Part shown: piece after piece, positions 15,701-54,467 of the stretch
Layout of the letters: each line of letters opens with the position of its first letter
Numbering within the stretch: the stretch's first letter is position 1
Source: Chrysomallon squamiferum
Taxonomy: Eukaryota; Animalia; Mollusca
Reading direction: 5' to 3'
Length of the DNA stretch: 64,000 nt
Assembly (NCBI GenBank): GCA_012295275.1
Contig: CM022671.1
Coordinates: forward strand, 19,158,001-19,222,000
Translations under genes and position numbers: made by a program
Notes under the pieces: generated by a model
Databases searched by the model: none
What the model was told of the DNA's origin: nothing
The model's input: the letters and a program-made list of their open reading frames with translations, nothing else

Positions 15701-18476
15701 AGATGTGGCTTTCCAGGTATATGCAAAAACAATTCAGATTTGACAATTAATAACTAAATCTAAAAGAGATAATTATATGTTAGTTGATAAATTTCATTGA
15801 TAAATAAATTAATCTACAACTGATGGACATGTTTTATCAAAAGACAAATACAATTTGAATAATTTAACATTCTCTTTTATTTCCACACCATATCTGAGAA
15901 TTTATTAAACAGGTGGGATCAATCATAGACTATTAACTTGAGATGAAATGCATGCATGTAAGCTTTCAAAACTTTAGCTGTTAAAAACATAAAAATACAT
16001 CCTTTTCTTCAGCCTGGCAATATAAGATATATAAAAAAAATATTAAATGAACATGCATGTATTTTTCTTGATATGTGTTACTGTGCATTTCTTTCAGTTG
16101 TGTGTGTATTGAAATTCTGAATATGTTTGCTGGATCATTTTAAAACTTCTTTTAGTTTATCCACAAATGAACATTTGGTATATTGTAACTATCGTTACTG
16201 TTTTTTCTTTTGCTTCAATTACTAGTTTCCATTCTGAGTGAAATATTCATCGAAGCATTACACCATGAAGTGGAACGATGGCTCCATTGATAAAAAATAA
16301 ATTTCCATAACAGTAAAAGAAAAATACACAAATGTATGTGACCTACCTAAATGTCACCAAATGCCTTTTATAGTCCTGTTTCCATTCAATAAATGATCGT
16401 ATTATCCACTTGGCCATGAAGCAGGTCACACAGGAAATTAATATTAAAATCATAGGAACTGGTTTGTCCTGTTGATAAAAATATCTGAATTTGTTAAAGG
16501 ATGGGCATTGAAGAAAAAATATGTGCACAGTTAAAAATACAGAAATAATATTGTGATTAAAATAAAATACTGAAGTATTAAAACTGCTTTTCAAATTCAG
16601 AATGATACAACGGAATAGCCATAAAATGGATTAAAAATCGATCTGATTTATAAAGCAGAATAAAAATAGTGAAACAATATATTAATACTGTACATGAAAA
16701 TAACAAGATTGTAACTGTAAACAATATTATAGATTGATTTGTCAAGCTGTAATATCTGCTAAAACCAGTTTTCCATGACTGGCTATTCTATAGGCTGCTG
16801 TTTTACACTAAAGTGTTTGTAGAAAATGGAAATATGCATTTACACAAGATGAACCCAGTAAAACTGAATAACAGCTTGAAAGCTTGTTTCTTCTATACAT
16901 TTTGCATAGTGTTTACAAAATTCAAATTTTAAATGAATGCTTTTTTAATATGATTAGATACAAAAATTGTTACATCTTGATATGTATATTTTTCTTAAAT
17001 ATCATATTTATATCTCAGATGATAAATAAGCAAAACTGTCCTATAAACCACATTTTTTTTTACTCATGAAAGGTCAAAAAGTTAATGTGAACATGATATC
17101 AACTGCCAAAGATAAGTCATAAAAATGACACAGTATAAAAATATTTTTAATACTATTTATAAATATATTTATTTACTTATTTTGTTATTTATGTTAATAC
17201 CATTTTTCACATAAAATATTCACTAAACTAGTTTTTGTTGAATCATAAATAAGAATAATAAACAGTGTGACATTAATGACAGGTGCCTGTACTATGTGGG
17301 TCAAATTTACTAAAGAATAAAATGTGATGGTGACTGAGGGTTCTTTGAATGTGTTAGCACTTGACCTTTTAAATTTAAGTGACTCCACCTTTCAGAGTGT
17401 TTAACTTACTCTCACTGTTAGGCAGTGTCTTGAATTCTACTTCATGTCAGATTCTTAATATCACTTGCTCAGCAGTAAACTGTTGAAATTTTAAAGAAAA
17501 CAATCACAAAATGTTTTAAATAGTTTAATAAATGAATAAATAAATGATTTAAAAATTAATAATTTAAGAACCAAGATAAAATTTATAAAAATAAAAAGTA
17601 AAAGATTGATGTTAACAGTAAAGGTAATGATTTTAAATGCATTGGAATTAACTTTTTAAATTTAAAAAAAAAAAAAATGAAAAATGGAAGAGGTGTTGTT
17701 TTATAAGTCCAGATAGGAAGAAATGGAAAATTTGGTACAAACATTACAAAATCTAATTTTAACATATTCTGTGGAAACATCAGAAACTTAATATTTTTTT
17801 TCATATCAATAGTTTAAATATTTGTTTTTTCACAATATAAAAACAATAATAGTAATGAGTACAAAAGGGAAAAAAAAAGAAAAGAAAAGAAAAACTAAAA
17901 AGATGCTTTAAGTTTTACTGTTATTTGTTTTGTGTTTGTCATGATCTTAACTAGGCTTCAGTTCTTCCTTTTAGGGTAATCAACCTGGTAAAGAATTTCA
18001 CATATACATGTGGGAGTTACTTACTCATCACTGTTTGTTCTCTAGTTTGTTCGTCCAGCCACCTTTTTGTACCACAACTGTTTTTCTACCTTACTTTTAT
18101 TTCACACATCTTGCAGTGACTAGCTCTAATAGATCCACGATTTGTTTACCTTGAATCTAAAGCAGGTGTGTTTCTTGTCTTCACAAAGATATATTCGTTT
18201 CAACATTTTTATTTTTTCTATTTTTTTTTTTTTTTTATTATGTAGTCAGTTCAGGTTAACAAAATATTTGAATAATTATTTGATCAAGAAACTTAATGTA
18301 TTTGTGGATGTGTATTTATATGTGGATTAGGAATTTATCTGTCTGCTAACAAAAGGAGAAGTGTATTTTGTGAATGAGAATCATAAGAGTTTTATAATGT
18401 GAGTTGGAGAAAAATATTCTTCTCTTAATAGATATCTTTCATCTGGAATTTAACCAAACTTCCCTTTGTAAACTAA

Positions 18477-25000: not shown

Positions 25001-28000
25001 ACTGTTTCTTTATTGTCTTCAGCTTCTAAAACCAACAGAACTGGCCAACCCAAAGATTGATGAAATGAGTGTAATGACTTACATCTCACAGTTCCCAAAA
25101 GCCAAGCTCAAACCCGGAGCACCCACTCGCCCTAGAGTGAATGCTGGCAGAGTGAGGGCGTGGGGACCTGGCCTGGAGGCCACTGGTAATCAGGTGGGAG
25201 CCCCAGCTCGCTTCACTGTGGAAACATTCAGCGCTGGGAAAGGCCAAGTTGAAGTTATCATTCTTAACCCCAAGGGCAAACAGGAACCTGTGAGTTTTAA
25301 CATAGTTCCTCATCTCAATCTTCTATACATGTTATCTTGTTAAGTTGACATTTGAGATTTGAATATCAGATATTCCAAACTAGTCATCCTTTGGATATTT
25401 AGAATAAGTGATATTAGTAATTCATGTATTAAATAATATAAAGATAAATAATTTAGATTTGAAAAATTGGTTTGGAGAAAACTTTATTAGATTTATTGGA
25501 GTAATGCTATATATTTTTTTTGATAATCTATTATCAGTGTATCTGGTTTGAGTTTTCTATTGTTATTAAAATGAACAATAAATGTAAAAATCAGTATCTA
25601 AAAAAATCTGATAAAATTAACTTAGCTAGGACAAAGTATCATTTTAAGAAGTTATTCTTATTGGAAGCCTTTTTATAGATCAGAATAATTTGTACAATTT
25701 TTTGATTTATTAAGCATTTTATAGCAAGTGAAGACAAGAAATTCAATTTAAACTCTATCTTTTTTCTAGCTTAAATACATTAGTCATGGTGACACAGAAT
25801 CATATCAGTGGCATTAAGGAAAATCTGTTATTTCAAGAATAATTATTTACAACTCCATATGTCTTAATTAGTTATTAGAAACTAAATACATAATATATTA
25901 CATTATTAAATACCTTACGTATAATGACACTATACATTTTTCTTGATTATGCAAGTTATTTTCAGTTGCACTTAGAGTAAATCATCTGATGTTGTGAGAT
26001 ATTTAACATCTTGTTTTTCTTTACACAGGCCTGAAGGATCTTGATATATGTAAAAACAAAATCACTTTTAGAAAGTCAGTCAGCCAAATAAGACTCTTGA
26101 GCACAATCTGTTTCATTTTTTAAATATATTTTCTTAAACATGAACAGAATAATAACATTTGATTGCTCATTTCCAGTGTGAAGTTGTCTTCAACAATGAC
26201 AGAAATCTCACATACTCCTGTGTGTATGTGGCAAGCATGGAGGGAATGTACAAGGTTTGTCTAATTTGTCAGTTGTTTCTCTCGTTTTCATTCTGTGTTT
26301 CATCATGATGATTACCATTTCAGTGTGAAATTGTGCTCACCTCTAATGATGTTGCTGAGGACAAGCAACTCTTTACCTGTACTTACACCCCAGAGGTGGA
26401 GGGCATTTTCAAGGTAGGTTGCGCATCCGGTGGTTTGCCGCTCGATCGCTGTAGAATGGTTGATCTAGACTTGGATGCTCCGAAATGTAGTCTTTCTCAC
26501 AGACTGATTCTGTCCATGTAAATCCACTTACAGTGAGGATTAAATTTCACGCAATTTTAGTAAATCTGTTCACTGAAATTTTCAAAGCCCATTTGTACAT
26601 AGCTTTAATAATTCCATTTTACGCAATTCAAGTAATTCTCTTTTATTGTTTTGAGTAAATTCATTTTACAAAATTGCTGAAGGGTTCAGTATTTTAAAAC
26701 ATGTTTGACAATTTTATTTTCTTAATTGGAAATTGGTCATAAGGAAAATAAAATATTAATGCTGTAAAAGAAATATTTACTGAAATGTTTAAGTGTAATG
26801 GTACAATGCAAAGGGAGTTTAGTAAGAAAAGCAGGAATAAACTATTCGGTGAATAATTTCTTTATTATCATTTCATCCTAAAAAGTTTCTAAATTTGTCA
26901 TATAAAATGTGAAATCAAACTGTTATCATAATAATAATAAAATAGTAGTAACAATAATAATAATATTAACTTTAATTCTTTAAAATTTAATATTCTCATT
27001 CAAAAATTCAAAGGAAAAAAAGTTAAGGATTCTTTAACAGAAGTGTTTATTAAAATTGCTTGAAATTTAAAACAAAAAAACACAAAACAGAAGTGTTAAG
27101 ATTTACATGGCTGTAGATGACTTTAGTTTGGATGTGATAAAACCCGAGTGAATATGGCCGCTAGTCAACAAATTAGGTTTGTGTATCAGTGTTTTGTTGT
27201 GAAAACCTGTTGTTATTGTTGTGTAACTTTTAGTTTTGTCCTTGTATAGTTCTAAGAAAATTGTGTATTAATTATAAAAACTTCTGGGATTATGACATTA
27301 TTATTTTGACAATAAATAAAAGTAATGTTGCCAAGTATCTAACTTGCGTGCTGTTGGGCACAAAATCAGTTCTTCTCTGACGAATTTTTCACACTGCTCC
27401 TATCATTTGATCCTACTGACTATTTACTTCAAACCCTACCAGACAACTATGTCTTATCATAAATTTGGGTATTTTCTAAGGGAATATACATCTATTTAAT
27501 ATATGCACAAAAAAAAAAAAAAAAAAAAAAATTGGTATTTGGTGACAGTAGCCCATGGCATTCAGTTTTCAATTCTTGTATCTGTAGAAGAAAATTTAAT
27601 AACATTAAATACTGTAAATGGCTGAAGTGTTGTTAAATATTTATTAACTTTGGGTATTGTAAATGTCCTTAAAGGATAATAAAGTCAGTATAAACTTACA
27701 TGGTGGAAGTAATCATTATCTAACACTTACATGCATACTATCTTCTTATTGTATATTATATCCAGTAATGACTAATGAAGTCTTTAAATGCTTTAAATAT
27801 TCCTTTTCACTGGACCATTTAGTTTGGTCTTTTGACAAAAATTCTATCCTCTGTACTGAAAAGTCAGAGCCTAGAAAATCCCAAATTTCCAGTCTGAAAC
27901 TGAAATTGAATTCAGTCGTTACCAGTAAAGTACTTGAAATATAATTAAAGTAAAGCTTTTCCAGTATGGGCTACACCTTCTGATTCTAGATAATAAGCTA

Positions 28001-31000
28001 TCCATCCATTGAACAAATTCTGTATTTTAATTGTATTAAGAGATGATGGTTAACAGTAATTACATAACCATTAGTTGTCTTGATCCGTTGATATACTTTA
28101 CTGTTAAAACTAGGGCAATATTCTATGTTGTAACTTACAGAGCATGTTAGAAAACAAAAATAAAGCTGTGCTTTTTCTAATATGTTGATGTATTTAATGT
28201 AATCCATTTAAAGCTGTTGTCTTTTTAACTATAAAACCTTACCCAACCCTTAATTTTTGTTTTATATTAAACAAAGGCAAAGTATAAATTTTTTAAATTG
28301 TTTTAAAAATGTAACAAGTTTTGTAAATTTAACAATTTTTGTTTAAAACTCATATTTAATACAGAGGCTTTATTTCTGTTTGATATTTTTCTTGTTAGAT
28401 TTTGGGTGAAAAAAACAACTACCACCAACAACAATAAAAAAAATGGGGAAGAAAAATCCCAATTATTAATGCTGTGAATACAGTTTAGATATCTTGTTTT
28501 GAGATTAAACTACTTAACTATTTAGGTGACTGAATAATACTTCTGAGCCTTGTTATTATTGAGATGACTGAAAGACATTAATTGGACTCATTATCATCAA
28601 AATAACTGAATAAATGATTTTCAAGGAAGTGAATAAATGTTATTTGTTGACGTTGTTAAACATTTTCCTCTAGATAAATGTTGGAATGTTGAAATGTTTT
28701 TTGATGCCCTGTTTTAATGTTTATTATGAAGATAAACATTTTTGAAATAGAATTTGTATTCATATTTGTAATATAATCTTTGCTGTGTGAATTGTAATGA
28801 CTTCCTAGTTTCATTATTAGATTGATGTTAGATAATCCTACAAAAAAATATATATATATTTGTTAATTCATAAAAAGTATGTACATTTTTAAAATCAATA
28901 TTAGGTCAATAAAAGTGTTAAAAAAACCCAATAATAATTTAAATGATCATAATGCTAATACAAGTAGACTGTCCAGTAATGATAATTCAGAAATCTGAAA
29001 CATTGGATATATCCCCAAATGTTAATTTTGTTTTGGCCACATATTTTATTGAACATTTCCTAAAAAAAATAAATAAAAAATCCTGTAGAGTATTAAGTGA
29101 GTAATTATTGCAAATTTCATTATCAGTTATTATACTACAAATAAACAGCATATCTATTAATTACTATTATTTAAATTATTGAGGCTGTTCACTAGAAATA
29201 CTTAAATATTTTGCTTTTAAAGCTTTGCCACTAAATCACAATTTGTATATTGTACACTACTTTTTCAAAATCAAAGATAGACTTTCTACTGATGATTTCA
29301 CATTATGGATAGCTAATCTGAAATAACAGAACATTTATTAGAAAAAGTGAAATTAGCATAGTTTATTACAGTTTAAATTTTTTGAATATTGTAACTTGGA
29401 CTTCTTAAAGATTAGAAATATTTACTTAATATATGTTAATATTAAATAATTTTGGTTTCCAAAAATACTTAATTTACTATATTATTAGTTATTTTTATTT
29501 TTTTTTTTTTTTTGTATGTTTTTTCATCATTTTTATATATATATAAGTAGCAAAAATATTTAGGTTACTAATAAGATATATATTTTTAATAAATCTGGTT
29601 GTTGTTTGTTTATTGTTTGTTGTAATAAATTACTTGAACAGGTAACTAAAAACATTTATTTATGATTCATTTTGTGTATTATTTAGGTGATCATCAAATT
29701 TGCAGGAAAAGAAATTCCAAAGAGCCCATACACTGTGAAGGTAGAGGGAGTGGCTGGGGACCCATCCAAGGTAACTGCCAAGGGGCCTGGCCTTGAGAAA
29801 ACTGGGGTGGTTGCTGGCAAGAAAACATACTTTGAGGTCTATACAAAAGGTATTGACACAATTTAATAACAGTGTATGTGCTTCTTTCTAAAGATTAAAT
29901 GAATTGTAAGCAAATTAAAGTAGATTGGTATATAAAATAAAATAATTATTTTTGTTGATTTTAATTTACAGTGCTTTTAAAAGAATTGTCCCTGTTTGCA
30001 TAAGCTCAGTCTTCAAAACCATTTTGTATTCAATACCATCATAGAAATGTTTGTATTTCATTGAAATTAATAAACTCCATACACATGACAACCATAATTC
30101 CTATTATTTTAGGCAAATAGATTATAATGCATCATTGAAACAAAACATTTAAATCTATATATATATATATATAATATGTAAAATGATGAAAAATAATGAA
30201 TTTGCAAATGTTCAGTTAATCAGCATAATCATTTCTTTATTTATCTCTGATGAACAATGCATGCTTAGGCTGAGGGTTCATTAAATTTAATTATTAGCTG
30301 TTAATCAAAATACATTAAAAAAAAACCCAACTTTGGTCTTCTATTACAACAGGAGCTGGCAATGGTAATGTGGACGTAGCCATCTTGGATCCTCGTGGAC
30401 GCAAGGACTCGGTGCGAGCCAGTATTCAGCCAGTGAGGGGAAAAGAAGGGACCTTCCTAGTGGAGTACACCCCAGTGGAACCCGGACAATACTCGGTCAA
30501 TGTGTTCTTCTCTGGCCACCAGATTCCAAACAGCCCGTTTGGAGTTAATGTGTCACCAGGTATGTACCTGTTTTTCTAAACATTTTAGCTCTAAATATAA
30601 GGACCACAACTTTCTAAAACTTTTTATTATTACTATTATCGCTGTTATTATTTTTATAAAGGTCTTTTTAGATATTTCTGATGATCTTATAGCTCAGAAA
30701 AATAGAATTTAAATTACTTCATTTTAATTTATCATCATCTTTGTTTTTGTTATTGTTTTTTTATACACATCTATATGCAAATTTGTACATACAGAAATAT
30801 AATAAACAAACACAAAGGTAAACATATACATGCATGTGTACATATACATACATACTTATTTTAAAGAATTTTATTTTAAAATTTATGATCATATAGTACA
30901 AAATGGAGAAATGTTATTAGAAATTTTATATCTTATATTTTTTCCTTTCTAAATTACACATTATTAAAAAAACAACAAAAAAACAATGCCTTGTTAATAA

Positions 31001-33117
31001 ATGAAATCTTAAGTGGGATTTTGTTTTGTTTTCTTAACTGCTTTAAAAATAAATTGGAAATTGATTCTTTTGGTAAAAAGACTTCACATTACAAAAAAAT
31101 TCTTCTTAGTTTCACATTCATCACTTACTCTATTTATATTGCAAAATATTTTTAAAATAAAATTAATTTTTCATAACTATTCACTAAATATGAAATTTAA
31201 AATTTTTTTTCTTTTTTTTTAATAAAATAAACAATGCTTTAATTTTTTGTATAAATACAGTATTTGCTTTCATTTAGCATTTTTCTTTAAAAAATACAGT
31301 ATATTTGTTCAAATATGCCTGTTTTCATGTTAGACAATCTTGTGATATCCAGTCGAGCTCGCAGGTTATCAGGTAGTTTCTTAATCCTTCCCAACTCCTT
31401 CCCCTATTTTAAATTAAACTAACTTCTGAAAATCAGCATAGGTGTTTGGTCTTTATAATTAGCTTAATATTCTGAAATAAGAGATGAAGGACTTACTGAC
31501 ACAGTGTTTACATTGTTTTACTGATCTGACCACTTGTTACTGGTATTTATTATACAAAAATATTAGTAATATAAGTAATGAATTTTCAGCTTTAGGTTGT
31601 TGTTTTTTTCTGTTACACAACTGTGGGAAATATAACTTCCAAACTGAGCAAAAATTAACATTTTTTGTGCCTATTTATATGGACGTGTCAGTATTATACT
31701 TTCACGGAAATGTGTGAATGAAAATGCTAACATAAAGTAGAAGGGGAGAGAAATCAGTTTTAAATATGTATTATGTTATAGTATAATGTATGAAATTTAA
31801 AGCAAATAACAAAGTACACATATATATTATATAATATTATATAGTATATTATATATATAATATAATATAGTGTAGTATAATATAATATAATATAATATAA
31901 TATAATATAATATAATATAATATAATATAATATAATATAATATAATATAACTGTAACATAATTTAACACATACCTCTATGAAATAATACTCAGATTTTTA
32001 AAATACACATTTTTATATCTGGGTAGATGATTTAGTCATGTCCAGTGAAGCCCGCAGGTTATCAGGTAGTTTCTTTTTCTTATTAAATTGTTTCATAAAT
32101 TTTATAATCTTTCATAATGATACAGTCAAAAAGCCAAATTAAAAATACTTTAATTATAGTATTTATTTATTTATTTATTTATTTATTTTTTTTTTTTTTT
32201 ATAATTTGTAAATACTTCTGTTAAACTTGATAAGTTATATGAATATCTGTCTATTTATACCTTGTTGTTTTGTCAGATTGTTTTTTAAATATTTAAAAAA
32301 AAAATGTTTTTACAAAAATTATTACTTGAACAATGTAGCATAGAGTAATTTAAATAAACTTTGTTTTTAATACTAGTCACTTTAGTGGCATACCAATCCA
32401 GCTAGGAGATTTCCATCAGGTAGTTCCTTGTTTTAAAATTTTTAAAAATTCTTTAAAGTGATAGTCCAGTCTAAGTACTTTTTTTTATTAAACATTTCTA
32501 GCATAGTCCATGCAGACTCCTTATTCTAAAATTCTTAAATTATTTCCCTTTTTTCAAAAAACAAAACAGAAAACAACACAAAAAACACTCTCTCCACTTT
32601 TGTTTCAGATCTTGTGTTTACATTATATTTAAAATCTGAAGAAGCATTAAAATTAGTATTAAAACAAAATATTTCTTTTATCACAGGCTTATTACAAGAC
32701 CATTTTTATTTTTAAATGTATTTCATTCCCATACAGAATTGCATTTATCATTTCTTTTGCCATGTTTTTTAATCCTTTTTTTTTTTTTTCTCATATTCTG
32801 TAAAAACATTATTTTTGGTGAATAATCCTTTTATATTAGTATAGTATTTTTCAGTGTTATAAATGCCCTCCAAGATGCCTAATTTGTTATTTTCAGGAAT
32901 ATTTTAATTGTAAAATAGCTCGTTTTTCTGATCTGGTTCCAGTATATTAAATTATTAATTTTCCTCAGTTAAAATTAAATTTAGAACTTTTTACCTTATA
33001 TTCAAAATTAATAATTCTTACAAATGTCTAACTTAATAAAGGTTTTATAATTCAGTCATAATAAATAGCATTTAATATATATGAAACCCAAAACTGAAAT
33101 GGGTGGATCAACAACAA

Positions 33118-34060: not shown

Positions 34061-37000
34061 TATTTCAGCCTCCAATGCCAAGGCTTGCTATGCAACTGGC
34101 CGTGGTATTCAGCCAAGAGGAATCAGGGTCAAGGACAATGCTGAGTTCAAAGTTCACACAGCAGGAGCAGGAAAGGGTGATCTTAACGTTCAGATTATTG
34201 GACCAGGTGGGTACTTAGTTATTTATTTCATAATTAATTAATTAATATAAAAATAAATGTACAATATGAAGTAACTGGTGATTAAAGAAATTGAATATGT
34301 GAGAGTAATAATAATTTTATTAAATTTATATCTTTTTAAATTATCAGGACTTGTTTGTTACTGATAAAAACAAAATATAAGCATTTAAATATGTGATCCA
34401 AAAACATTTAAATGGCAAAATATAATGTGGAAAACTTTTTAAAATTTTCTTTTTTCCTTCATTATTTCTGAAAAAATAATGGTAATTTATTGCATAATTC
34501 TAACCATATTCCTTTTAATATTATTTTACTTGCTTTTGTTATAAAAAGGTGGGATACCAGAGAAGTGCAATGTAAGGAAATCTCCAACTGAAGAAGGAGT
34601 TTACCTCTGCAGCTATGTCCCTACAAAACAAGGATCATATGTCATCAATGTCACTTTTGACAATGCTCACATTGCCAAGAGTCCATTTAAGGTTGATGTT
34701 GGTCCTTTTGTTCTGTCTAAGATTGTTGCATATGGTCCAGGATTGGAATCTGGAGTTGTTGGCCAGCCTGCTGTCTTTACAGTGGAAACAAATGGAGAAA
34801 CTGGTGCTCTTGGTATGTAATGTCTGTGTACTAACACATACATAAGAAATTTCATAAAATGTATTTATTTATTTAATATGTCTTTATTATTATTATTATA
34901 TACACAAGTTTTGAAAATTTAAATATATTTGTATTAACTTAAAAAATGATCAAAACATTTTTGTACATGTAAATATAGTATAATATTACATATTTCCAAG
35001 GTTTCTCCATTGAGGGCCCATCACAAGCAAAAATAGACTGCAAGGACAATGGTGATGGATCAGCTGATGTCACCTACTGGCCTACACAAGAAGGGGAATA
35101 TGCAGTGCACATCCTTTGCAATGAACAGGACATCCCCAACTCCCCATACATGGCCCAGATCCGCCCTGCTGAACCATTTGATGCATCGAGGGTTTGTTAA
35201 TGATGTTTTTTTTAGAATATGATGTATTAAAGAGCTCTTCATAATTCATTTTAAATATAAAACAACAACAAAAACAGAAGTGAAGTTTATTAAGTTTGGA
35301 GCACAAAAAGTCAAGATCTGTTGTAACAAAGCTGATATCTCCTGGCTCTAATTGGAATGAAATATTCATTTTAAACATTGTGCAGCTTTTGCTTTCTTCT
35401 AATTAAAATAGTTTACCTCTATGATGTAGTAACCATTGTTGCAGGTTACTGGTGAAGGGATGTTTCTATAACAGTTAAATGAATTCTCTTTTCCAATTAA
35501 AACAATATCTTAATTTTATTGTTTCATTACAGGTCATTGCTAAAGGGCCAGGGCTGCAGAAGACAGGTGTTACTGTTGGACAAAAGGCTGATTTTCATGT
35601 GGACACAAGATCAGCAGGAAAAGCACCACTGTCCATCCAGTGTTTTGATGTGGACTACAAACCTGTGGACGTTCTCATCAGAGACAACAAGAATGGAACA
35701 TTTGATTGTCACTACACCCCAAAACGCAATGTGAAACACACAGTTGTCATTTCATATGGTGGAGTGAATGTACCCAATAGTCCATTTAGGGTGAGATGTA
35801 AAATAATTTGATAGAAAATATATTTACTGTATCACTTTTTGTCTGACTCTTTTACAAAGTTACTGGATAACTCATAATTAATTTTCATCTTTACATAAAA
35901 ATGTTGATATATTTATTGCAGTATATATTTAGTGAGTTGTATAATGCTGAATTATAAATATATGATCATCCTAGAACAGTTATTTACAAGGTAATTTAGA
36001 ATTGTTTTTGCTGTTATTACTTTCATCTTTATTTATTTAATGTTTGGTAATTAATCTGTTAATTAATCCATAGATACTTTCTTTCTGTAAACAGATAATT
36101 ATAATGTAGTTTCTCATCATTCTTAACAGATTTTTGTGTCTGAACCGACCAATCCTTCCAAGGTAAAAGTTTATGGACCTGGTGTAGAAAAAGGTGTAAA
36201 AACCGGAAAACCAACCAGTTTCAAGGTGGACTGCAAAGAGGCTGGGCCAGGTAAAATTTTTAGTTAATGGATTTTATTAAATTAAAAATAATTATTTTCC
36301 ATGAATTAAGTATAGATATTTTTAAAATCTATATTATAGGAAGGATATTACTGTATATTTCCTTGATATGTTGAAATATTTAAAAAATTAAAAATGAAAA
36401 TTTAGGAAAAAGATATTAAAAACACAAGAAACCAAAGCATTTTTATATAAATTTAGTTGACTCAAGAAATACTTTTAAATTTATTATTTAAAAATGTATA
36501 TGTAAAATAATTTCATACTTGTCTAAAATAATATTCCTTCTGTTGTAGGTGATGTTGCTATTGCCTTAACTGACAGTAATGGCCAAGATGTTCCAGTGAA
36601 CGTTACTGACAATGGTGATGGTACTTTCACTGTGGATTATGAACCAAAGACACCAGGAACATATACTGTAATGGTGTATTTGGCAGGCAAGGAGATACCA
36701 AAAAGTCCTATCAAGGTTAATGTTGAGTCCAGCATTGATGTTAGCAAAGTCAAAGTTGTTGGCCTTGAACCAAGTAAGCATCTTTATTATTTAAATAATT
36801 TTTTTTACTTTAGCCACAGTATTAATAAAATATGAATAGATGAAATGTATGGCAGGATTAAAAATATGACTAAGGTATATGTGTATGTATAAAGTGACTC
36901 CCCTATCCAATAGTTTCTTGATACTTTAATATCTTAGTATGAATTGAAGATTTAGGCAGGTTAATCTAGGAAAATTATTTTACAAGGAGATAATGTATTT

Positions 37001-40000
37001 GTTTGGCATTGTCAGTTCAAAATTGAAGAACAACATAAAATCACAGATAAAAGATAAGCATGGATAGAAATAATGAGAACAAATTATCCAACAATTTTTC
37101 TTTTTGAAGCAGTTGTAAAAAAATGATTTTATACTCTGAAGTTATCCTTTAATTTTGTTGTTAATCTACTTGAAAATCATCAGAAAAAAACACTTTAATA
37201 TTTTCTTTGTAAAGAAATGCCTATGGGTGTGGAAAAGAAAATTGACATTATCTCGGCTGGCTTACCCAAAGCCGAGGCACGAGTGATGATAACCTCTCCT
37301 AGTGGACAAACAAGAACTGTCCCTACTCAAGAAATAGCTAATGGCCACACTGCTAGTGTTGCCTTCTTAGAGCCAGGCCCCCACATGGTCAGTGTTCAGT
37401 ATGCTGGTGTTGAGGTTCCCAAATCTCCCTTCAAGGTGGAATCGGTAAAAATGCCACCAAAAGTTAAAGCTTATGGCCCAGGTCTTACTTCTGGCCAGCC
37501 TGAGAAACCATGTTGCTTTACAATTGACACCAGAGAAGAAACCAACCCAGGACAGCTAGGTGTTACAGTGGAAGGACCCACAGAGTCCAAAATTGAATGT
37601 ACGGATAATGGGGATGGCACTTGTGCTGTGGCCTATTTCCCACAGAAGGAAGGAACCTACAAGGTGAATGTAACATATGGAGGTCAGCACATCCCCCAAT
37701 CTCCATTCACTGCTGAGATTGCCAAAGGTGCAGGAATTGATGTCAGTGGAATTACAACCAGTGGGCCTGGTCTGTCTCCTGATGGTAAAACGATATGTTC
37801 ATATGCATGGTTGAATGTCTCCCAAGCCTCTTGATGTCATTGCCTCAACTAATACTTTATGCTAACAATGGATTGAAGATAATCACTTCTTTAACATCTG
37901 CAGAATTTTTCATTGCATGTTTTCAGCTCTTTTGTTTTTTATTTTTTTTTATTTTTAATGATCTTTTTATATTTCAGTTTTAATGATTAGTCTTGGAGAA
38001 AAAAAAAATGTTTTCCTTTCATTTTATCTTTTTTTACTTGGCAGAAATGAAATTAAATTACTAACTTGATATTTGCAGCTGTAAAAAGATTGCATTATTT
38101 ATTTATTTATTGACAAAATGTAGACTTATGGGTATTAACACAATTAATAAGATATCATAGTGCAGGCAGGTGTTTGTGACATGAATTATCTCCCCTACAT
38201 AACAAAAAAATCATTTTAATTATATAACCAGATCTTGGAATACAATTTTTAAATTAATAAAAAAAAAATTTCCATTATATTTTATTGTTTCTTTTACAGT
38301 TATTTTTATTGTGCAGGATAAAAGAAAACATTGGTTATTTGTTTATTTTATTTTTTGTTTTGATGTTGTCATCTAATAAGTTTATTAATAACAGAATATC
38401 TAATACAAATGATTTTGTTACTAAAATATGCTAATCTGTTTGATATTATTAGTTAATAGTTTTATGTTTGAATGGTTAGATATAATTAGGCATTAAATGA
38501 ATTTTTTAGTTGTCACAGAATAGATGAAATGGCCATCAAGTGCTTTAGTTACGTTGAATGAAGAATGCATTGGCTTAAATATTCAGACATTTTCTGTTTA
38601 TTGTTTAGCAGTTCACATATCATCAGTGTATATTTCATATTTTCATGCATTATTATTCTAGAATATCTACCACTGATCTAAATTTTACCTGTTATTTCAC
38701 ATTCTGAGGATAACATATTTACTATGCCATCGTTAAAAAGCAATTCTCTAAATGTTTTGCATTATTCTTGATTTTTTTTTATATCTTTCATCATAGGCTC
38801 TCAGTAAAAAGCTGTGATCTAAAATGTTGTAATGTCTAAATAAAACCTATCATTGTAACCGTACTATTATTGAAAAGTAATGATCTAAATCTTGTTATGC
38901 CTTGGAACTGCTTATCTTGTGTCACTTCAGTATCTTTGACATCTGCAGATTCTATGATTTTGTGTTCAAGATTTGAAATATATTAATGATATTCAGTGTT
39001 AATGTTATTAATATTATTATTTTTATTATTACTATATTTTCTGTCAGTTTTAATCTATGATTAAGATTTTAGAATGTTGATTAATGTGGGAGAGAATAGA
39101 TAGTTTAATAAGAGAAATAAATTATTTTTAAATGTGCGTTTGTGTAAATATGAAGCAGTTTAGATACATGAATTGATGGAGAGTAATTTAGTTTGTTTTA
39201 TTTTTTTATAAAATCATTTATACATGTTTCAAGTGATAGAAAATCTTGATTTCTTTTAAAAAAGAATTGATTTCATTTTTATTTTTCTGTCTTTTGTTTT
39301 CTCTTTTCTTCCAAGTTCCATAAGCTAAGGTTTGTATTGTCAGATTCATTATGCAACTGAAGTTGAATTTAACATTGTTAATATTTTGTTATTAACCAGT
39401 TTTCCATGTCAGTATGTTTCACTGAATATTTCATTTATCACTATATTCCACTGAATGTTTTATTATGAGTGTGTTCCACTGAATGTTTCATAATGAATAA
39501 TACATACAGAAGACTAAAACTTATGTCATTTTAGGAGTATTTATTGAATCTCCTACTGAGTTCACTGTTGATGCTAAATCTGTCACTCCTGTTGGCGAAG
39601 GCAATGTCAAGGCCATCCTGACAAACCCAAAAGGTCAAAAGACAGAATGTCCAGTTCGCAACAATGGAGATGGTACCTACACAGTGCAGTATATTCCATT
39701 TGAGACTGGTAACTTTATTTTTTTTTATAATCTAATTTTGTGAAATAGTATTAATAAATAGTTTAATCTTTTATTCTGGGTAGGTTTGATAATGGCTTCT
39801 TGTTTATTAAAAAAATCCACTGAAGTCCAGTTATCAGAACTTCAAATTAATTTGTCTTCAAAAATATTTCAACCAGACATTGAAAAATAAAAAATATTTC
39901 AACCAGTAATTGAAAATAAACTGGTACTAGAAATGTTGCATATGTGATAATTTTAACACACTTACCTGTATAGGTGTAAATTGTTTCAGGACCGATGACA

Positions 40001-43000: not shown

Positions 43001-46000
43001 TCAACATGAGGTCTGTTAATTAAATTGTTGAAACAATGTTATTTTATTACAGAAGGTGCTGAAAAGACAGTTCCAGTGAACAAAGAAACATTTATCAGCA
43101 TTGATGCCAGCACTGCTGGTATTGGTAAAGTAACATGTCGCATTCGCAGCCCCAATGGGACTGACATTGACATTGACATCATTGACCAAGGTGATGGGAC
43201 CTTCACCATCTCCTTCATCCCCCAGTTCCCTGGCGAGTACACAATTGAAATCAAGTTTGGAGGAAATGCAATCCCAGATGGGCAGTACACCATTCAGGTT
43301 AGTCACTTCTTCAGGCTGTTTTTGTATTCTTAATGGGTTTTTTCACTGTCTGATTTGTAGTTAGTGAATTAACCTGGAGTTTCAATAACACAGTAGTTGT
43401 AGTTAGAGTGAGTCACTAACATGTTTGACCAACAATCTTAAAATAAGTATAATAATGAAACTGGTGAAAAACTAATGTGGGCTTATTGGGTGTAGCATTT
43501 TGTGGATTTTACATTTTATTTTGGCTAATATGTGTTACATTAAAAAAAATATATATATAAGATTTTAACATCATATTGTCTACTAAATCCGAAAATCTAA
43601 TTATAAACGTTTTACTATTGATTAGATTGATTGTTATAGATACATTTTATTTATTTGTGAATCCACAAGTCATAATACAAAATAATAGTTGCTTACATAC
43701 TATTAAATGCAAGTAATAAATTCAAAATTAGACTGAGTTGCCTCTGTAAAATTGTCATTACCTCCCTTCCTTTTTAGACACTGCTCATTATTTATCTAGA
43801 GGTATTTTCATTACCACATGATAATATGAAAAAACATAATTTTCCTTGTTTTTATTTTTCTAAACTTCATTGCTTTTGTTTGTTTTTGTTTTTTTACATA
43901 GATAACAGACAAAATTATTTGGAGAAAAAAAAAAAAAAAAAAAAACACAAAAAAAACCAAGGCCAACCAAACAAACAAATAATACAGAAATATTTATTTT
44001 TTCATTTTGTACAGATACTTCAATGTATCTAAATTAATCTAAAACAATTGTGCCCTACTTTGAATCATTCAATCATCTGAAATGACATTTATCTTTATAT
44101 TTGAAATCATCATCCTTAAATCATAATTTTAAGAGAATTATATTATTTTTTAAAGGTAAAATGAATAACATTTTTTTGCTATTATTATTGTGATCAACTG
44201 AGGTAATGACCAAAGATAATAAAAATTAGCAAGTGAGAACTCACATACACACATGAAAATTACACATACATGAACAACCACACATACATGAACAACCACA
44301 CATACATACATACACACATAAATGCATTTGCATACACACTAAATCCACATTCTAAGGAATTGTAATTTACTACATGTGTTATTTGTACACATCAACAAAT
44401 TTAAGGAAATGGAAGTATAATGATGCTAACAGCAGGAATTAACATTAAATGAATACAAAATGACTCTTATTTGAAGAAAAGGACTTACTAACCTGTGATT
44501 ATCTTTATTATTTACCCTGCTCCTGAACAGAAACAACATCATTAAGATTTATTTTGGGCGAAGAAGTCATGTGTACTTTTATAAACATTGTTTATTCAGT
44601 CATGTTGTTTTGTCTGTCCCTGCCAATAACTGGTGGTAATAATTTCCATTAATAAAAAAAACCATTAATAAAATTCCCATCATCTTGTATTTTATAACTG
44701 TACCAGTGGTGGAAGACAACGTTTTACCCATCACAGTGACAGTAAACAAAAATAAGTCAGATTAAATTTTCTACAACAAAACTGTTAGTTTTAAGACTAA
44801 AGTGATAAAGAATAAACGTGTTCACGTGCACGTGTGTATATTTATCAGGAGTCATGTTGACATTACAAGTATCAAGTTAAAAGTTGCAGGATACATGAAC
44901 TAAAAAGCTCTTTTGTCTAGACTGATAGGAAGAAGTGTATTTGTAAATATTATGTAAATGGTATTTCACACAGGAAGAAGCATAAATTATGATACTTCAT
45001 GATAACGATTAAATAAAATGAAAACTGTTCAAATTATCTAAACCTGTTACTGTGTATCTTATCTTCTGAAAAGAAAATTGTAAAGAAAGTTATTGTAGTT
45101 AAGTAAGCTGGTATTTTTAAAATGCATCTTGTAATTGTATATTGTGGCATGTGTATAAACATTCACTGGCTTGCTCATTTCCATGCACGTACACTACAAA
45201 AATATATCCATGAACATGTAACCAAATACCTTGCAAAAACATTGAAGAAAATAATAAACAAACACAATTTATTAATACAAAATATTTGTTTTTTCTTTTA
45301 GTTACTTGTTAATTTATGTATTTAATATACAATTTAATTTAATTATTAAAAAAAAAAAAAAAAAAAAAAGTCTGTAACAGTTCCAGACATTGCCCTCCAA
45401 ATTTTGTTTTTTTTAAATTATTTTGGCACCAGCTCAACTTGAGTTTTCTGAGCAGTCCTGTCAGTTTGACTCTAGTGCCACTTAACTGGCTTCTAAAGAA
45501 GTGAATTGGAATTTTAAAAAAATAAATAGAAATAATTCCAAAATGAAGCTAATTATCATTCATTTTTCTACCTGCCACTGGCTATACCTTTTGCAGTGGT
45601 GGAAAATGGAGCTAATTTAATTTATAACGTGCAGAAAAAAAAGGATAAAAGACTCCACAAAAAATCAAGGTCATTTCTTTATCATTTCAATACAATACAA
45701 TTCATGTAATCAGATTAGTGGAAGAGTAATATTTAGGTAATTGGCACACCACATAAGATGTTCTAGTGGGTTAAAAATGTTTTAGTAATAATTTCACTGC
45801 AGACATGGGGTTGCTTGTATTGTAAAACAGGTTGTGTGTTCATTGTTAAATAGTTTTAAGATGTTTGTGTGTGTTTGTTTCTCATGTGATACTAAAAATC
45901 TGCTAAACCCTCAGATAATATTAACAGTAATTCATAATTTTTTTTTTAACTTGTTAAATTATAATTTCAGGCAATTAAATTTAAAGGAGTCGGTTATCAA

Positions 46001-49000
46001 AAATGTAAAAGCTGGTTTTTACGTTTGATTTATTTGATGACATTAATCACAGAAATAGTTTAGAAGATATATAATTAAATTAAAACGTTTTAAAGCAATC
46101 GTATTTTTTCTTGTCTCTTTGGAGTTGCACTAAGGATAATAAATTTTAAAGATAGCTTTTTCAACAAGAAGTAATGTGATACAGTTTTGTATCATCTGAA
46201 ACCATTCATATCAGCTCTTGTCCTGGTTACTATCAGCAGTATCTCATATGAAGTCATTCCTGTGCTTTGGAAGGCAGTAAATGTTTTTCACAAGATGCTT
46301 TATGGTTTGTGCCTACTTAGAGAATTAAATTAACACGTTCACAGCAGCTATTTGTCAATATTTTCACCTCCACTGTGTGAAGTCCATTAATAAATTAATA
46401 ATTACTTAGTTAAAACAAGAGAAACTTGATCAGTGTGTCCAGAATGCATCTTTGTCCCATGTGAAAGTATTTAGGAAAAGTTTCATTTCAACCATGTCTA
46501 ATTACCAAAGCTACTTGGCAGAGTCTCTTTGCCTATTACTTTGAGGAATGCATATTTTCAATTGCCGTGTTCTCATTGGTTCAGAGTTTGGTCCAGTCAG
46601 CTTGTGAAATCATCTTAGCAATATATGCATCTGTGTAGTGAAGTGCATGTGTCACAACATGTTTTAAATAAATAATATTTGAGAGAGTTGAAGTAACAAG
46701 GAATTTTGTCATGTTGGGTGTATCTGTGTTTTGAACTTGTGTAAATTTATAGAAATTAACTTTGATGTCTGCAGCTAAATTATCTCTTTATTTTTTTCTT
46801 TAACATTTCGTAGCAAGGGTTTTGCACTTTCATAATTGTTTTGTGCAAAAAGAATGCACATGTAAAATTGAAGATCACTTGTCAGGATGCTAGTTTCCTC
46901 TCTGTTATGTCATCCAATCAACTTTGAGGAATTTTCCTTGGTTTCTGTCTTTGTGTAAACTTGTATAGGTTGTCTTTTGTTTGTTACAAAAGTGGAGCTG
47001 TAGAATATTTACAGATTTTCTTAAAACTTGACATCTAGGAAAAACAGTTTCTTCTAACAGAAGTAAAGGTGTGCAATATATAGGTAAGTTACATGTATAC
47101 TCAATGAAAATTAAATTTAATTTTTTTTTTCTATTTATTATATCAATATTTTGTATGTTTGCTTTTCATTTAATAATAAAATCAAGAAATGATAATAAAT
47201 ATATGCACATACTTTAAATTGTAATCAAAATGTACTTGATATAATGGGTTTCAATAATCCATTGATTATATTAATTTGTTTCAAAAACTTACTTGAAGTA
47301 AAATTTAATTTTTTTTTTTTTTTTTTTTTTTCATATTGTTAGTGTTAGTAAGGGCAACACTGATTACTTAGATATTGAAATGTTTAAAAATTTAACTTGA
47401 ACCATTTTTGGACAATTAAAAAATGCTACAGATGTAATTCATGTTATTCATTCAGATATGGTTTATTTTTTATGCTATCATTGAAAGAGTGATTTTTAAA
47501 AGACACAAATTCAAGAAAATAAGTATATTTCCTAAAAACATGCAGATTTTCACTGTTTGAGATTCTATTTTCAAGACATTTATTTTTTCACAAATATGTT
47601 TTGAAATCTTATTTTCAATAGTGAAAAATGAAATATGAATAGACAATTATTAACTGTCAAAATGAGTTGCATGTTTTTTGCCCATTTTACTAAGGCTTCA
47701 GCTGTTGAGATCAGTCATTTTACACAATTTCAAGCTATGTTCTCATTAAATATTTTGAAACTGAGCAATTTTATTCATTTTAATTTTCTTGTCTTCTAAA
47801 TAAAATTGTTAAGTTTTTAGTAGAAAAGAAAATAGCTACAAAACAAACAACAAAATATCAGAATACACCAAAGAATGTGGCAGACTGGATTTGTGCAGCT
47901 TGTGCATACCTTTTTTGTCAAGCAGTTCATGTAATTAGATTCACAGATCTGTGTACAAATGTCAGTGACTTTCTTATTTTTCCTTTTTCTTTTCTTTTTT
48001 TCATCCTATAATACTACTTCTGTTTATCATGCTCAAAATCCACAGAAGCAATTACACAATTTCTATTTCTCTGACATTAAGTTTTCAGACTGTTGAGGAA
48101 TTCAGACAGCTGAGTACAGGATAATCACTAAATATACTGTTAAGATTTTTTTTTTGTCCTTGTCTGGAAATGTTTTTTAAAAATAATGTAGAAGGTGTGC
48201 ATGTGTATGTATATATAACAAGAAATTAAAAAACATATCTCTTGAGTTAAATGAAAAGAAAACTGATTTACCATTGATTCTTGGCAGGTTAGCATTAGTA
48301 TTTCAAGACCCTCATAGGTTCAGTTCAAGTGGTTTAGGTTTATGTCAACTTCAATTAATTAAGAGACACAGTTTTGTGGAATCTGCCAGCCAAATGGCAA
48401 TGAGGGCTGAGCTCTTTTTATTTGACATGGAGCTAGGCTTGATTAATTTGCAAGATTCAGAAGCAAAACAGGTGAAAAAGAAATGTTTATGGGGATAGGC
48501 AGATATGATTTAATTGCTTCTGGTTGGTTGCCAGATCTTTATATACTAAACCAAGTCCTAACCTGAGCAGATAAAAATCTCTGTACAAAGTGCAAGGTTT
48601 TCTGCTTCTGTGAAATTGTCAAGAATTTATTACAGCAGAAACATTTTGCTGAAGGTTTTCTTTTAAATGATGCAAGTTTATATTTCACTTTTGTTCTAAA
48701 TTATTCTTCTGAAGAATGTTTTCAACATAGTTTTTCTTAATATTTACTAGACAGACCAAAAAACAAAAAGATCCAAAACATTCATCTTTATGACCATGGC
48801 CTTGATAGTCATCTTTCTTTCCATTATATTCTTTGTACTTTCCTCTATTTCACCATAGCCAAGGTAATTTTAAAGATAAAAAAAAAATAAGTAAAAATGT
48901 GCTGAAAAGCAATTACATCAATACAGATTGACTTATTATGTATCCACTCTTGTTCTTAGAGGGATGATGGCTCTCTGTTTTATTCTTCACATTCTTAGAG

Positions 49001-50296
49001 CAGACATTCTTGACTCTACAGTTATCATTTCTTGCTAACTTGTGTTAGTGTATTTCTACAGGAATGTACTTAGTTTTGTTAAAGCATTATTCATTGTATA
49101 CCAAGATCACAATCTCTCTGCATGTCCAGTTTTGTTTACTTGATATATGAGGTAGTCAGATAAGAAGCTACTGAACACCACAAATGACAGATTCTCTAAT
49201 TACAAGGGGAAAAGTAGATTGAAAATACATGTACTGATACAGGTTTAGATATAGATTTTCTTAAATCATTTCAAATTACCTTCTTGAAAATGCCTATAAA
49301 CTTTGGACTAGAAACAGTCAATTTGTCAGCCTTTTTAGTTTGGGTTCAATATTTTCTTGCTTATGATAGTAGTTTGTATAACAAGAGTGTAATAAATGTG
49401 GTATTTTGATATTAGCATAGCCCAAATAGTGCATATCTGTCTGCAGGTTAGTTTTGTGTAGAATTCAGTTTTAATTATCACTCAACTCTCCTAATACATG
49501 TATAAAAAAATATGTCTAAATAATGTTCTCATACTTTTTTAACATAACTTGCAGAGTCTGTTTAATTAGAATTTATTAGCAAAAAATTATTACCAGATAA
49601 CAGAAGAAAAAAAAATTAAAAGAAGAGAAATCCTAATGGCCATCTGTTTAAGGAAAGCAATCCCTTGTGTGTATGTTTTTTTTTCTGCATAAGATGACTT
49701 TCATAAAGCAAACATTTATACACAGAAAGAGGATGTAACCTGGTGAGAAGAAATGCAGTATAAATACTGAGATTTGTTTTATTTGGGACATATTGGTATT
49801 TGGCAAATGTTGAAAACCCTCACTGATAGTCATATGAAGGAAAACGATGACATAAATCTCTTTGCTTGACAGGTTACTTGCAGAGTTCACTTAAAATATG
49901 TGGAGCTTTGCCAGTTCCGGTAGATTCTTCTTCACATCTTTCTGAATATGATAGATTCATAAAAATTGCTCTAGGAAACCATTTTCATTTCTTTCATTTC
50001 CATTCTCTTGTTACAGTAGCCCCTGAGCTTGGATTATGGTCCAGTGCTATAGACATAACTACAGGAATAATGAATTACATGCTATAGCATATTTGTTTTT
50101 GTTATCTCCTTTCTCCATTTGACTTTTCTGTTAGTTTCAAAATTCTTTAGTTAAATAGTATTTGAAGGCTAAGGGCTTCAGCAAAATAATATTTTTTTAT
50201 TATGTACCATGTGAATGATATTTTTGACGTATTTTTGTGCCATTTTCTGTTCTTAGTTATTATGATGTTGTTCTGATTTGGGTTTTGGGTTTTTAG

Positions 50297-50329
<33 letters not shown>

Positions 50330-53300
50330 TTTATATGGATCATGAATTACAACATAATTCATTTTTAAAGATTGCCCATTCAGCTGTCAGTACATCATGG
50401 GTTTACTTTATAACAGAAAATTGTAATCATTTAAAAAAAGATAGCTTATTTCAGGATTTTTTTCTTTTTGTCAGATACTAACTTAATTTTGATGTACTAA
50501 ACATGCCATTTATATTATGATTATACTGAAACAGTTACAAAATATAATGTTATTTAGCCTACTTGATAATACCTATACTACAAAATTTTGTTACTTAATT
50601 ATATTTAATTTGTACAATACATAATAATATATGAGACATTAATCAATTAGTTAGGCTACAATATTTCAATAACATCTGTTGTAAATTTTTCAACATTAGT
50701 GCTCTACTTTTAATGTTAGGCTAATTTCAAAATCATTTAAAAGTAAATCACAATGTTTACAAGTTGTTTCAACTGAACTATTTTCTATTTTCATTTTATA
50801 AGCAATTTGAATGTGAGGAAAACAATACAGTACAAATGATCTAATTCACAGAACATAATCATGTTGGTTTTTTTTTGTGTGTCCATCACACATCCTAAAA
50901 TATCATTCCAGATAAGATATCCATACAGCAAGATGGAGGTTTGTTGTACAACATCTACTACAGTGGTTAAAGTGGTCTTATAACTCAGTCATGGCAAACC
51001 CATTTAACACCTGAATTTTCTTCATCCATATGAAATGTTAATTTTCTTCTCAGCAGCAACATTAAAAAAAACTTCCTGTCAGAGTGATTCAGTACATTAA
51101 CATAACGAAGTCATTAGATACACATAATTGTGTTGTCTTCTCAGTAGTACATGTGTGAAAATCATCTCTCTCTTTGTTGGGGAAAGGTATTTTCGATATT
51201 GATCACAATAAGTTTTGCATTTACCTGATAAAATATTTTCATAAGCTGTACATGTTACAGGTAAACAACATGTGTATTAGTCCAGTTTTGCTTTTATTTT
51301 AACAAATTTCTGTGTTCTAATTACTAATAATTAAATTAAATAATGGTTTGTAGGAATTGGTTCTTTTATGTTACAAAATTTTAAAAATGTTTCCCTCCAT
51401 GCAATTGTTAAGGTATCTATGGTATTTTTCACTATTGGAACTTAAGCTGAAATATCAAAGCACAGGAGGTAATAACTGATTGCACTCAACAGCAGTGATT
51501 ATTAGTAGCCATCTTGTTGAAGTATCCAACACACTTTTATCCATTCTCACACTTGGTCTGTTATTTTCTTGATAATAACAGAGCAAATTTTGTCCCAATT
51601 CTTTACACTTGGCGTTAACTTCAAAATGATATTTTAAACAGATGGGTCTATATCAAGATGGGCATAGATTATATATAACTGTTAAAAATAACAAAAAGGG
51701 AAATAAAAATTACATTTGGAACACAATAAAATTTGGATCACAACACTTTTGAGTGTTGATTATCAAGCTCTGCCATAAATTTGTTAGTGGAGTTGATAGC
51801 ATGCACATATACCTTTGAAAGCTACTGTTTGGCTATTAATTTAAAGCTTTCTCAGCATCTGTGAATTATGACTTTCAGAGGCAGTGGGCTCCCTGCTGGC
51901 AGTAAACTGGAACTGATCACTACCAGATTGAACTGTAATCCTCTAGCATGAAGCACTAAAGCTTTAGCTGGCAATTATATTTCTCCTGAGATGTAGCTTC
52001 ATAAGTCTTTGACCCGATGACCACAATTAATATGTCAGACATCTTTGAAAAAATATTAAAAATAAAGAAAAATGTAAAACAAATTCTGTTAGAGTTGGGT
52101 TATAGGAAAACGATATTTCAGTCTTTGAAATAATTTAGTGTTACTTGAAACACTGAAGTGTTTATTATATCATTTGATTCCAGTACTAGACAACAGGTGT
52201 TATATTCATCATCATAAATCCTGTTCAGATTCCTACCAGACATTAATTTGTAACTTCTTGTAACACCGAGATTGTTTTTATTTTGTTCTGTAAATAAATG
52301 AGAGATAGCTGGAAATAGCTGAGATGCAGTTGACTTCAAAACTAAATATTTTGATTCAATTACTATAATGACTATACTCCAGTCCTTGGTATGTTGTCCA
52401 TTCTCAAGCATGAACCTGAATTGTAGTTGTCAAGCTATTCCTTATATCGGTGGATTTATCTATTAAAGAAATAATAAAAATTTTTATATTTAAAAAGCAA
52501 TAACCAAGCAGAATAACAAATTTTATCTGGTTTGTATTTCTAGTGTTAAAATTCTTGAATGAATTTACAACATTTTATAATTATGTATATTATTTATTTT
52601 ACAGTTCAGAGAAAAAATGAAAAATAAGAGCAGATAATAATTTGTAGCCTTGTATGTCTATTAAAGTATAACATTAAAAATACTGAAAAAGTTCTGTAAC
52701 TCTTAAGCTTATCAGTGCAAATATAAGTGTTGAGACCAAAAAATCAGGAATTTATCATAGAGACAAACTGAAGAGCATTTGAGGAATACATATTTCCTCT
52801 GAATTGGCTGAGAATTCCAGCCACGCAATCTTCTGACTTTACCAGACTATTCTGCTCCACTATTATGTCATGTTCAATTACCAGTATATATTTCCTTGAT
52901 GTTCTGGTAATGGGTAGTTGCTATAAACTCATCTTCATTTTACCACATGTTGTCTTAATCCTGAAAGTCATTACTTTTTAAAATATTTTACACAGGTTAG
53001 TCATGATGATGTTGATTGAAAAACCCTTAATATAGCATCTTTCTATTATAGAGAACATTTTAGTTTTTTTTCAGTTTTTATTCCATGCTTTTTTAAAATG
53101 AATTTTATTTTTGTGTTTTTAAAGTGCTTCAGAGAGTAAAAATAATGCTACATTTCAACAGCAGAACTATTTTTAACTCATAATTTTGTTAGTTAATGAA
53201 AACAAAATGGACAAAACATATTCTTAACAAATTAGATTAAAAATTATTTTGGTTCCTTCAGTTACTGGTGCGCTGCCATACACTTATTTAATATTGCCTG

Positions 53301-54434: not shown

Positions 54435-54467
<33 letters not shown>

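Follow-up and report, generated by a model that had tools for sequence, protein, structure and literature searches.

The intron between the Ig2 and Ig3 coding exons of a gastropod filamin gene contains two paralogous 39-nt units, A and B, which are best explained as duplicated optional cassette microexons that would add a flexible RRxS-bearing linker between Ig2 and Ig3 in some cell types. We assign this explanation a probability of about 0.6. According to it, a local exon duplication would have given rise to units A and B, and with one or both of them included the protein would gain a linker of 13 or 26 residues, predicted to be flexible, with one or two RRxS sites for a basophilic kinase, likely PKA. 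Inclusion may be tissue-restricted, with skipping as the default, and would loosen the Ig2–Ig3 joint near the actin-binding domain, where phosphorylation might alter cross-link geometry or partner binding. Judged from the sequence, A and B are likely to be real, lineage-restricted cassette microexons, and we consider their use as cassette exons quite probable. If they are included, the chances that the sites are phosphorylated by PKA or a related kinase appear about even.

Paired 39-nt units in the Ig2–Ig3 intron

The window, which is the whole 64-kb stretch of DNA analyzed, contains the first 30 coding exons of filamin on the + strand. The spliced model encodes 1,895 residues with no stop and aligns ungapped to P0125, an isoform of the closest relative, with 92.2% identity. 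In a quick IQ-TREE analysis with SH-aLRT support only (36 rows; actin-binding domain to ~Ig5), the model paired with P0026 (SH-aLRT 100), and this pair joined Haliotis (97) among molluscs, which makes a gastropod host likely. Constitutive exon 7 (30353..30559, + strand, phase 1-1; residues 399-467) encodes the second half of Ig2 and is 82% identical to P0026. Constitutive exon 8 (34069..34206, + strand, phase 1-1) encodes the start of Ig3 and matches the first 47 residues of the FLNA chains 4m9p_A and 6ew1_A. Their junction at residue 467/468 is flanked by the GPG/GRG motifs of Ig2 (377) and Ig3 (478), and the intron is 3.5 kb long, of phase 1, and has a GC content of 22%.

Unit A (31334..31372, + strand) and unit B (32027..32065, + strand) each encode 13 residues in phase 1. 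Both are preceded by AG and end with CAG followed by the intron bases gtagtttctt. They are identical at 30/39 nt, and the nine differences comprise five silent and four replacement changes; the pairing described in the sequence-only reading was confirmed. Past the donor, identity is 10/10 over the initial 10 intron bases and then 3, 6, 6, 3, and 3 per 10, and the identity of the upstream flanks is 6, 2, 4, 2, 6, and 2 per 10 nt. That similarity ends about 10 nt past the donor, as had been proposed, is therefore correct. When a degenerate pattern derived from A and B was searched in the window with up to 3 mismatches, it matched only A and B themselves, with 0.01 matches expected. No other 39-nt windows of the intron are as GC-rich (0.49-0.51) as units A, B, and C (a third copy described below), and these three are the sole matches to ARR(x1-2)S in the six frames of the 64 kb.

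For the coding constraint claimed earlier, this pattern is suggestive. Five of the nine differences are silent, and the phase-1 frame alone is open in both units, each of the other two frames having a stop in at least one of them. However, at least five silent differences of nine without a stop were obtained in 2.8-9.7% of random placements (P 0.03-0.10), and the silent bias is thus marginal. Inclusion of none, one, or both units preserves the reading frame of the phase-1 intron as previously stated, A and B together being 78 nt. Mutually exclusive use of A and B was ruled out as a forced arrangement, since neither the frame nor the 654-nt spacer between them bars double inclusion.

Splice-site matrices were trained on the gene's own sites, and all in-frame intronic AG-GT candidates of 9-60 nt (1,161 in total) were ranked. 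Unit A ranked 2, C18, an 18-nt form of unit C, ranked 4, and unit B ranked 31, and an in-frame 30-nt form of B with an alternative acceptor (B30, from 32036, + strand) ranked 36. Of 13,439 candidate pairs of equal length, A/B came first (0.77-0.79; runner-up 0.61). The acceptor and donor of A score above 95% and 98% of decoys, respectively, and in strength its splice signals equal those of the constitutive exons. The acceptor of B is weaker, at the 64th percentile of decoys, but is still inside the range of the gene's true acceptors; as a whole, the unit scores are in the range seen at the splice sites of the gene itself. Among 537 candidates of at least 30 nt, eight carry RRxS, and all eight are forms of A or B. 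The forms that match the phase of the intron, with a length divisible by three and no stop, are A, B, B30, and C18, but not the 43- and 34-nt forms of C (C43 and C34).

Neural microexons of the SRRM4/eMIC type have a UGC motif just upstream of the acceptor. TGC was found at -18 of the A acceptor and nowhere within 40 nt of B or C43. Microexons of this type are 3-27 nt long (PMC13542418, excerpt); at 39 nt A and B are too long, and C18 alone fits. The targets of QKI/How contain a downstream ACUAAY plus a nearby UAAY half-site. An ACTAAC (31418..31423, + strand) is indeed present 46 nt after the donor of A, where it had been noted before, and is a possible QKI/How or branch-point-like motif, with the TAAY nearest to this core at +10 and +84 of A. 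ACTAAY occurs 38 times on the + strand of the window, corresponding to a chance of ~8.5% within 150 nt, and none is found near B or C; hence the motif is not above chance and is absent at the other two units.

Further features were noted in other parts of the gene. A likely mutually exclusive pair of Ig1 exons was observed at 26177-26254 (78 nt, 26 residues) and 26324-26413 (a 90-nt paralog, 30 residues), both phase 0-0 and 69 nt apart. The splice scores of the second member are good, and the 30-residue form was found in none of the fetched homologs matched by the search pattern. A 570-nt phase 1-1 exon at 37215-37784 encodes about two Ig repeats. Since the matching stretch is absent from the short isoform P0124, rod length is likely tuned by splicing. 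The introns 43298-55707 (12 kb) and 2552-23853 (21 kb) contain several high-scoring in-frame microexon candidates, such as 46814-46861 and 18246-18254, which are probably mostly due to chance.

A third paralog and RNA coverage of unit A

The sequence-only reading counted two duplicated units, both of which were confirmed, and overlooked a third paralog. CAGGTAG occurs three times on the + strand, and the third occurrence ends an exon-like unit C at 32419. Unit C (32377..32419, + strand) is 43 nt long from the aligned acceptor and is out of frame with an in-frame TAG, as is its 34-nt form from 32386. Its donor is CAG followed by gtagttcctt, with 9/10 intron bases as in A and B. Unit C aligns to A and B from the AG to the donor, with one additional base in the 5' half and one additional codon near the 3' end. 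Translated in the A/B frame, the 5' part gives TLVA, and the 3' part gives NPARRFPS in another frame. As a local alignment, C is the next-best match to A (31 versus a background of up to 25) and to B (25 versus up to 23), a modest excess. An inner CCAG acceptor gives the in-frame 18-nt form C18 (32402..32419, + strand), which encodes ARRFPS (RRxPS). This acceptor is at the 88th percentile of decoys, with a branch-like TTAAT at -35.

The frameshift in C is the sole one in the gene region, the 30-exon model being otherwise free of any. It is unlikely that an assembly error caused it, because the 30 exons (1,895 codons) align gaplessly to P0125. Unit C is probably an older copy whose 5' part no longer keeps the frame, and most likely it persists as an 18-nt exon encoding ARRFPS or as one that carries a stop; its 43- and 34-nt forms may represent a poison exon or a decayed copy. 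That one copy is frameshifted in an otherwise intact gene shows that the copies can decay, which counts against the cassette explanation.

Part of the locus was matched in four RNA runs of one study, and a fifth run, of unknown kind, was also a match. The four RNA runs were compared with the surroundings of unit A. Two contigs were obtained, both of which run unspliced through the splice sites. The contig from run X2 (depth 3.8) spans the whole unit and that from X4 (depth 2) its 3' part, with no differences, and the sequence of A is confirmed in other samples by these contigs. Runs X1 and X3 had no cover over A and are uninformative. No spliced contig was found over A in the four runs (no joints and no loose ends), at a low depth and with contigs that drop minor isoforms.

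The Ig2–Ig3 junction in other filamins

We fetched 413 proteins, among which the Ig2–Ig3 junction was resolvable in 233. An insert is present at 33 of these junctions and absent from 200; about four of the 33 (P0395, P0396, P0251, and P0108) resemble intron read-through or mis-models. Filamin isoforms of the scallops Mizuhopecten and Argopecten have inserts of 0, 12, 17, 29, or 33 and of 0, 19, 32, or 37 residues, respectively, and that of Ylistrum has 17 residues. Inserts of 0 or 2 residues (KT) occur in the snails Biomphalaria and Pomacea, of 0 or 42 in filamin C of the pipefish Stigmatopora, of 64 in the flatworm Macrostomum, and of 56-73 in four spiralian-like proteins. A 16-residue insert encoded without introns was found in a nemertean-like protein (P0067, contig L001), which is sister to Lineus in the tree; the two fetched Lineus isoforms are without an insert. 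A profile search with exon 7 gave 105 candidate stretches, which were reduced to one locus, the same intronless L001.

Three modules (12+4+17 and 13+5+19) account for the lengths of the scallop inserts, suggesting that the Ig2–Ig3 junction of these animals has a combinatorial array of microexons. From these lengths we infer that the modules are separate exons; unlike A and B, they are not near-identical duplicates. The inserts of scallops, snails, pipefish, flatworm, and the nemertean-like animal occupy the same junction as A and B and are optional where several isoforms are known, in a combinatorial manner in scallops. The novelty of an optional hinge between Ig2 and Ig3 was overstated in the sequence-only reading, as the filamins of these animals already have inserts there. 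In their mode of working, A, B, and C would resemble both the scallop array and other duplicated cassette microexons.

In their sequences, the inserts elsewhere seem to be unrelated to A, B, and C, being Pro/Gly/Lys-rich or of two residues. Neither RRxS nor RRxxS was found in any of the 33 inserts, so the motif is without cross-species support. P0026, P0124, and P0125, the isoforms of the closest relative (92% identity), all have no Ig2–Ig3 insert, nor do 11 Haliotis records. The 33 matches of a further protein search included no RRLS isoform, and a search of 50% clusters yielded mostly distant filamin-repeat proteins and nothing new at this junction. Since inserts occur at the junction across lineages, an optional linker is recurrent there, whereas RRLS is so far private to this genome. 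No paper on filamin Ig2–Ig3 microexons in molluscs and no discussion of a variable Ig2–Ig3 hinge was found in open-access full text (main text only for the former).

Some further records differ in exon structure around this position. The short bivalve-like ORFs P0397-P0403 are unbroken across the Ig2–Ig3 junction and lose similarity at the outer boundaries of exons 7 and 8, which suggests that the Ig2–Ig3 intron was lost in some bivalves. Optional-looking inserts of ~11-14 residues were seen in P0387 and P0211 (Magallana and Haliotis asinina) at the exon 6/7 junction, inside Ig2.

Candidate kinase sites and rival explanations

R-R-x-S is the PKA consensus. As had been reported, RRxS is encoded by both A and B, and A also fits RxRxxS; these are motif matches, i.e. 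candidate sites. Neither the 1,895 visible filamin residues nor full-length P0125 contains RRxS/T, so that the units, if included, would be the only source of RRxS in the visible part of the protein. Inclusion would add one RRxS (A or B) or two (A and B), and C18 would add RRxPS. Among 147 mollusc-clade filamin records of at least 700 residues, four contain RRx[ST] or RRxPS, and all four represent one oyster site elsewhere in the protein. When A and B are both included, Asp directly follows the serine of A. Asp at +1 is poor for PKA, and the two sites may therefore not simply add up.

For the structure of a linker at this position, the 16-residue L001 insert was modeled with AlphaFold. Both Ig folds were intact, with a pLDDT of 52-69 over the insert and a pTM of 0.50, while an insert-free Lineus control gave a pTM of 0.61 and no weak segment. 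The model fits a loose linker, read with a small pTM gap, a nemertean-like stand-in, and an insert that lacks alignment support.

In human filamin A, PKA phosphorylates Ser2152, which lies in RRAPS in Ig20 (PMC11346442, excerpt), and a turtle FLNA (P0049) keeps RRRAPS. The candidate sites in A, B, and C are likewise basophilic PKA-type filamin sites, and RRFPS of C18 has the same RRxPS form. Ser2152 is constitutive and lies in rod 2, where autoinhibition by Ig20-21 gates it, whereas the sites in A, B, and C would be optional and near the actin-binding end; the mollusc records checked are without a Ser2152-type site. The same excerpt names two filamin hinges, hinge 1 (Ig15-16) and hinge 2 (Ig23-24), which resemble the proposed linker as short inter-Ig segments but are at positions other than Ig2–Ig3. 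A 39-nt phase-0 microexon encoding 13 residues is present in the likely hinge 1 region of our model (55708-55746), surrounded by intron in a stretch of 15 kb. The isoforms P0125 and P0026 show this microexon to be optional in the closest relative, and Biomphalaria, Pomacea, and Haliotis have counterparts that are likewise optional.

Exon N of FLNA presumably lies in intron 9 and would then share the Ig2/Ig3 phase-1 intron with the present units. In mammalian Flna, this exon is a poison exon repressed by PTBP1 (PMC8652244, PMC13542418, and PMC5816070, in excerpt). It is thus a stop-carrying optional filamin exon, as C43 or C34 would be, though C may simply be decayed. In a 2012 study attributed to Mendez-Lopez, PKA reportedly phosphorylates one Mytilus filamin isoform in vitro. 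The PKA sites of twitchin are placed in inter-Ig linkers, and the units had been compared with this system. Phosphorylation of twitchin by PKA releases catch, and catch muscle is tied to bivalves (PMC12040844, excerpt). The comparison stands as an analogy, in that cAMP/PKA controls a multi-Ig muscle protein in a mollusc, but twitchin is another protein and its role is in bivalve catch according to this excerpt, while the present filamin is that of a gastropod.

Even if A and B are real optional exons, their role may be that of basic spacers or of binding motifs, such as an actin-binding Arg-rich linker or a protease site, with RRLS being incidental or used by another basophilic kinase. The Pro/Gly/Lys-rich or two-residue inserts of all other lineages, none of which has RRxS, would agree with such a role, and an Arg-rich inter-Ig linker is present in palladin (PMC12637626, excerpt). 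In addition, the 3' 13 nt do not vary between A and B and lie directly at the donor, where splice constraint or gene conversion could have preserved them. We regard this explanation as unlikely, since ARR and the terminal Ser are kept in all three copies despite the other codons of C (AGG AGA versus CGC AGG) and its extra codon, and since RRxS, like RRxPS, is a PKA-type form (RRAPS in PMC11346442, excerpt). It seems quite unlikely that the units are fossil or decaying duplicates that once were coding but have dropped out of splicing, C being the most decayed. Such a history would account for the absence of junctions from the RNA contigs over A, the frameshift in C, the insert-free isoforms of the closest relative, and the weak acceptor of B. 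However, A and B keep their length, frame, AG, donor, and a GC content of 46% while their flanks have diverged to background, and the splice signals of A match those of constitutive exons in strength.

We consider it highly improbable that the units are non-coding, i.e. a short dispersed repeat, a structured RNA, or decoy splice sites. It is true that the GTAGT donor common to the units is used by none of 29 exons of the gene model. But the open frame agrees with the intron phase, and the 64 kb contain just three copies, all in sense orientation within a single intron. In a search of metagenome and viral contigs, the shared 3' pattern had no exact match. A structured RNA was rejected because there was no Rfam match and the folding z-scores were -0.5, +1.3, and -0.6.

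The cassette explanation thus draws on the restriction of A/B similarity to the exon plus 10 donor bases, the frame open in phase 1 only, the splice ranks, the GC-rich units, and a junction that tolerates inserts. Against it are the unspliced-only contigs over A, the insert-free closest relative and Haliotis, the 0/33 inserts with RRxS elsewhere, the marginal silent bias, the weak acceptor of B, and the Asp after the serine of A. A bolder extension, which we hold to be doubtful, is that the Ig2/Ig3 intron is an old bilaterian slot reused for a third optional hinge. In that case the snail array might be the only PKA input of this filamin, replacing Ser2152, with splicing setting the number of sites and C doubling as an 18-nt site or a poison exon.

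If the units are included, it would be up to splicing whether a given filamin responds to cAMP at all, and the response would be at the actin-binding end and not in rod 2, in a group whose filamins appear to be without the vertebrate PKA site. Duplicated cassette microexons with phospho-motifs are already known as a kind, and the RRLS motif is known in one genome. Unrelated optional linkers between Ig2 and Ig3 occur in scallops, snails, a pipefish, a flatworm, and a nemertean-like animal, suggesting that filamins have a variable hinge there which has been overlooked. This broader by-product of the analysis may matter more than the kinase-site exons themselves.
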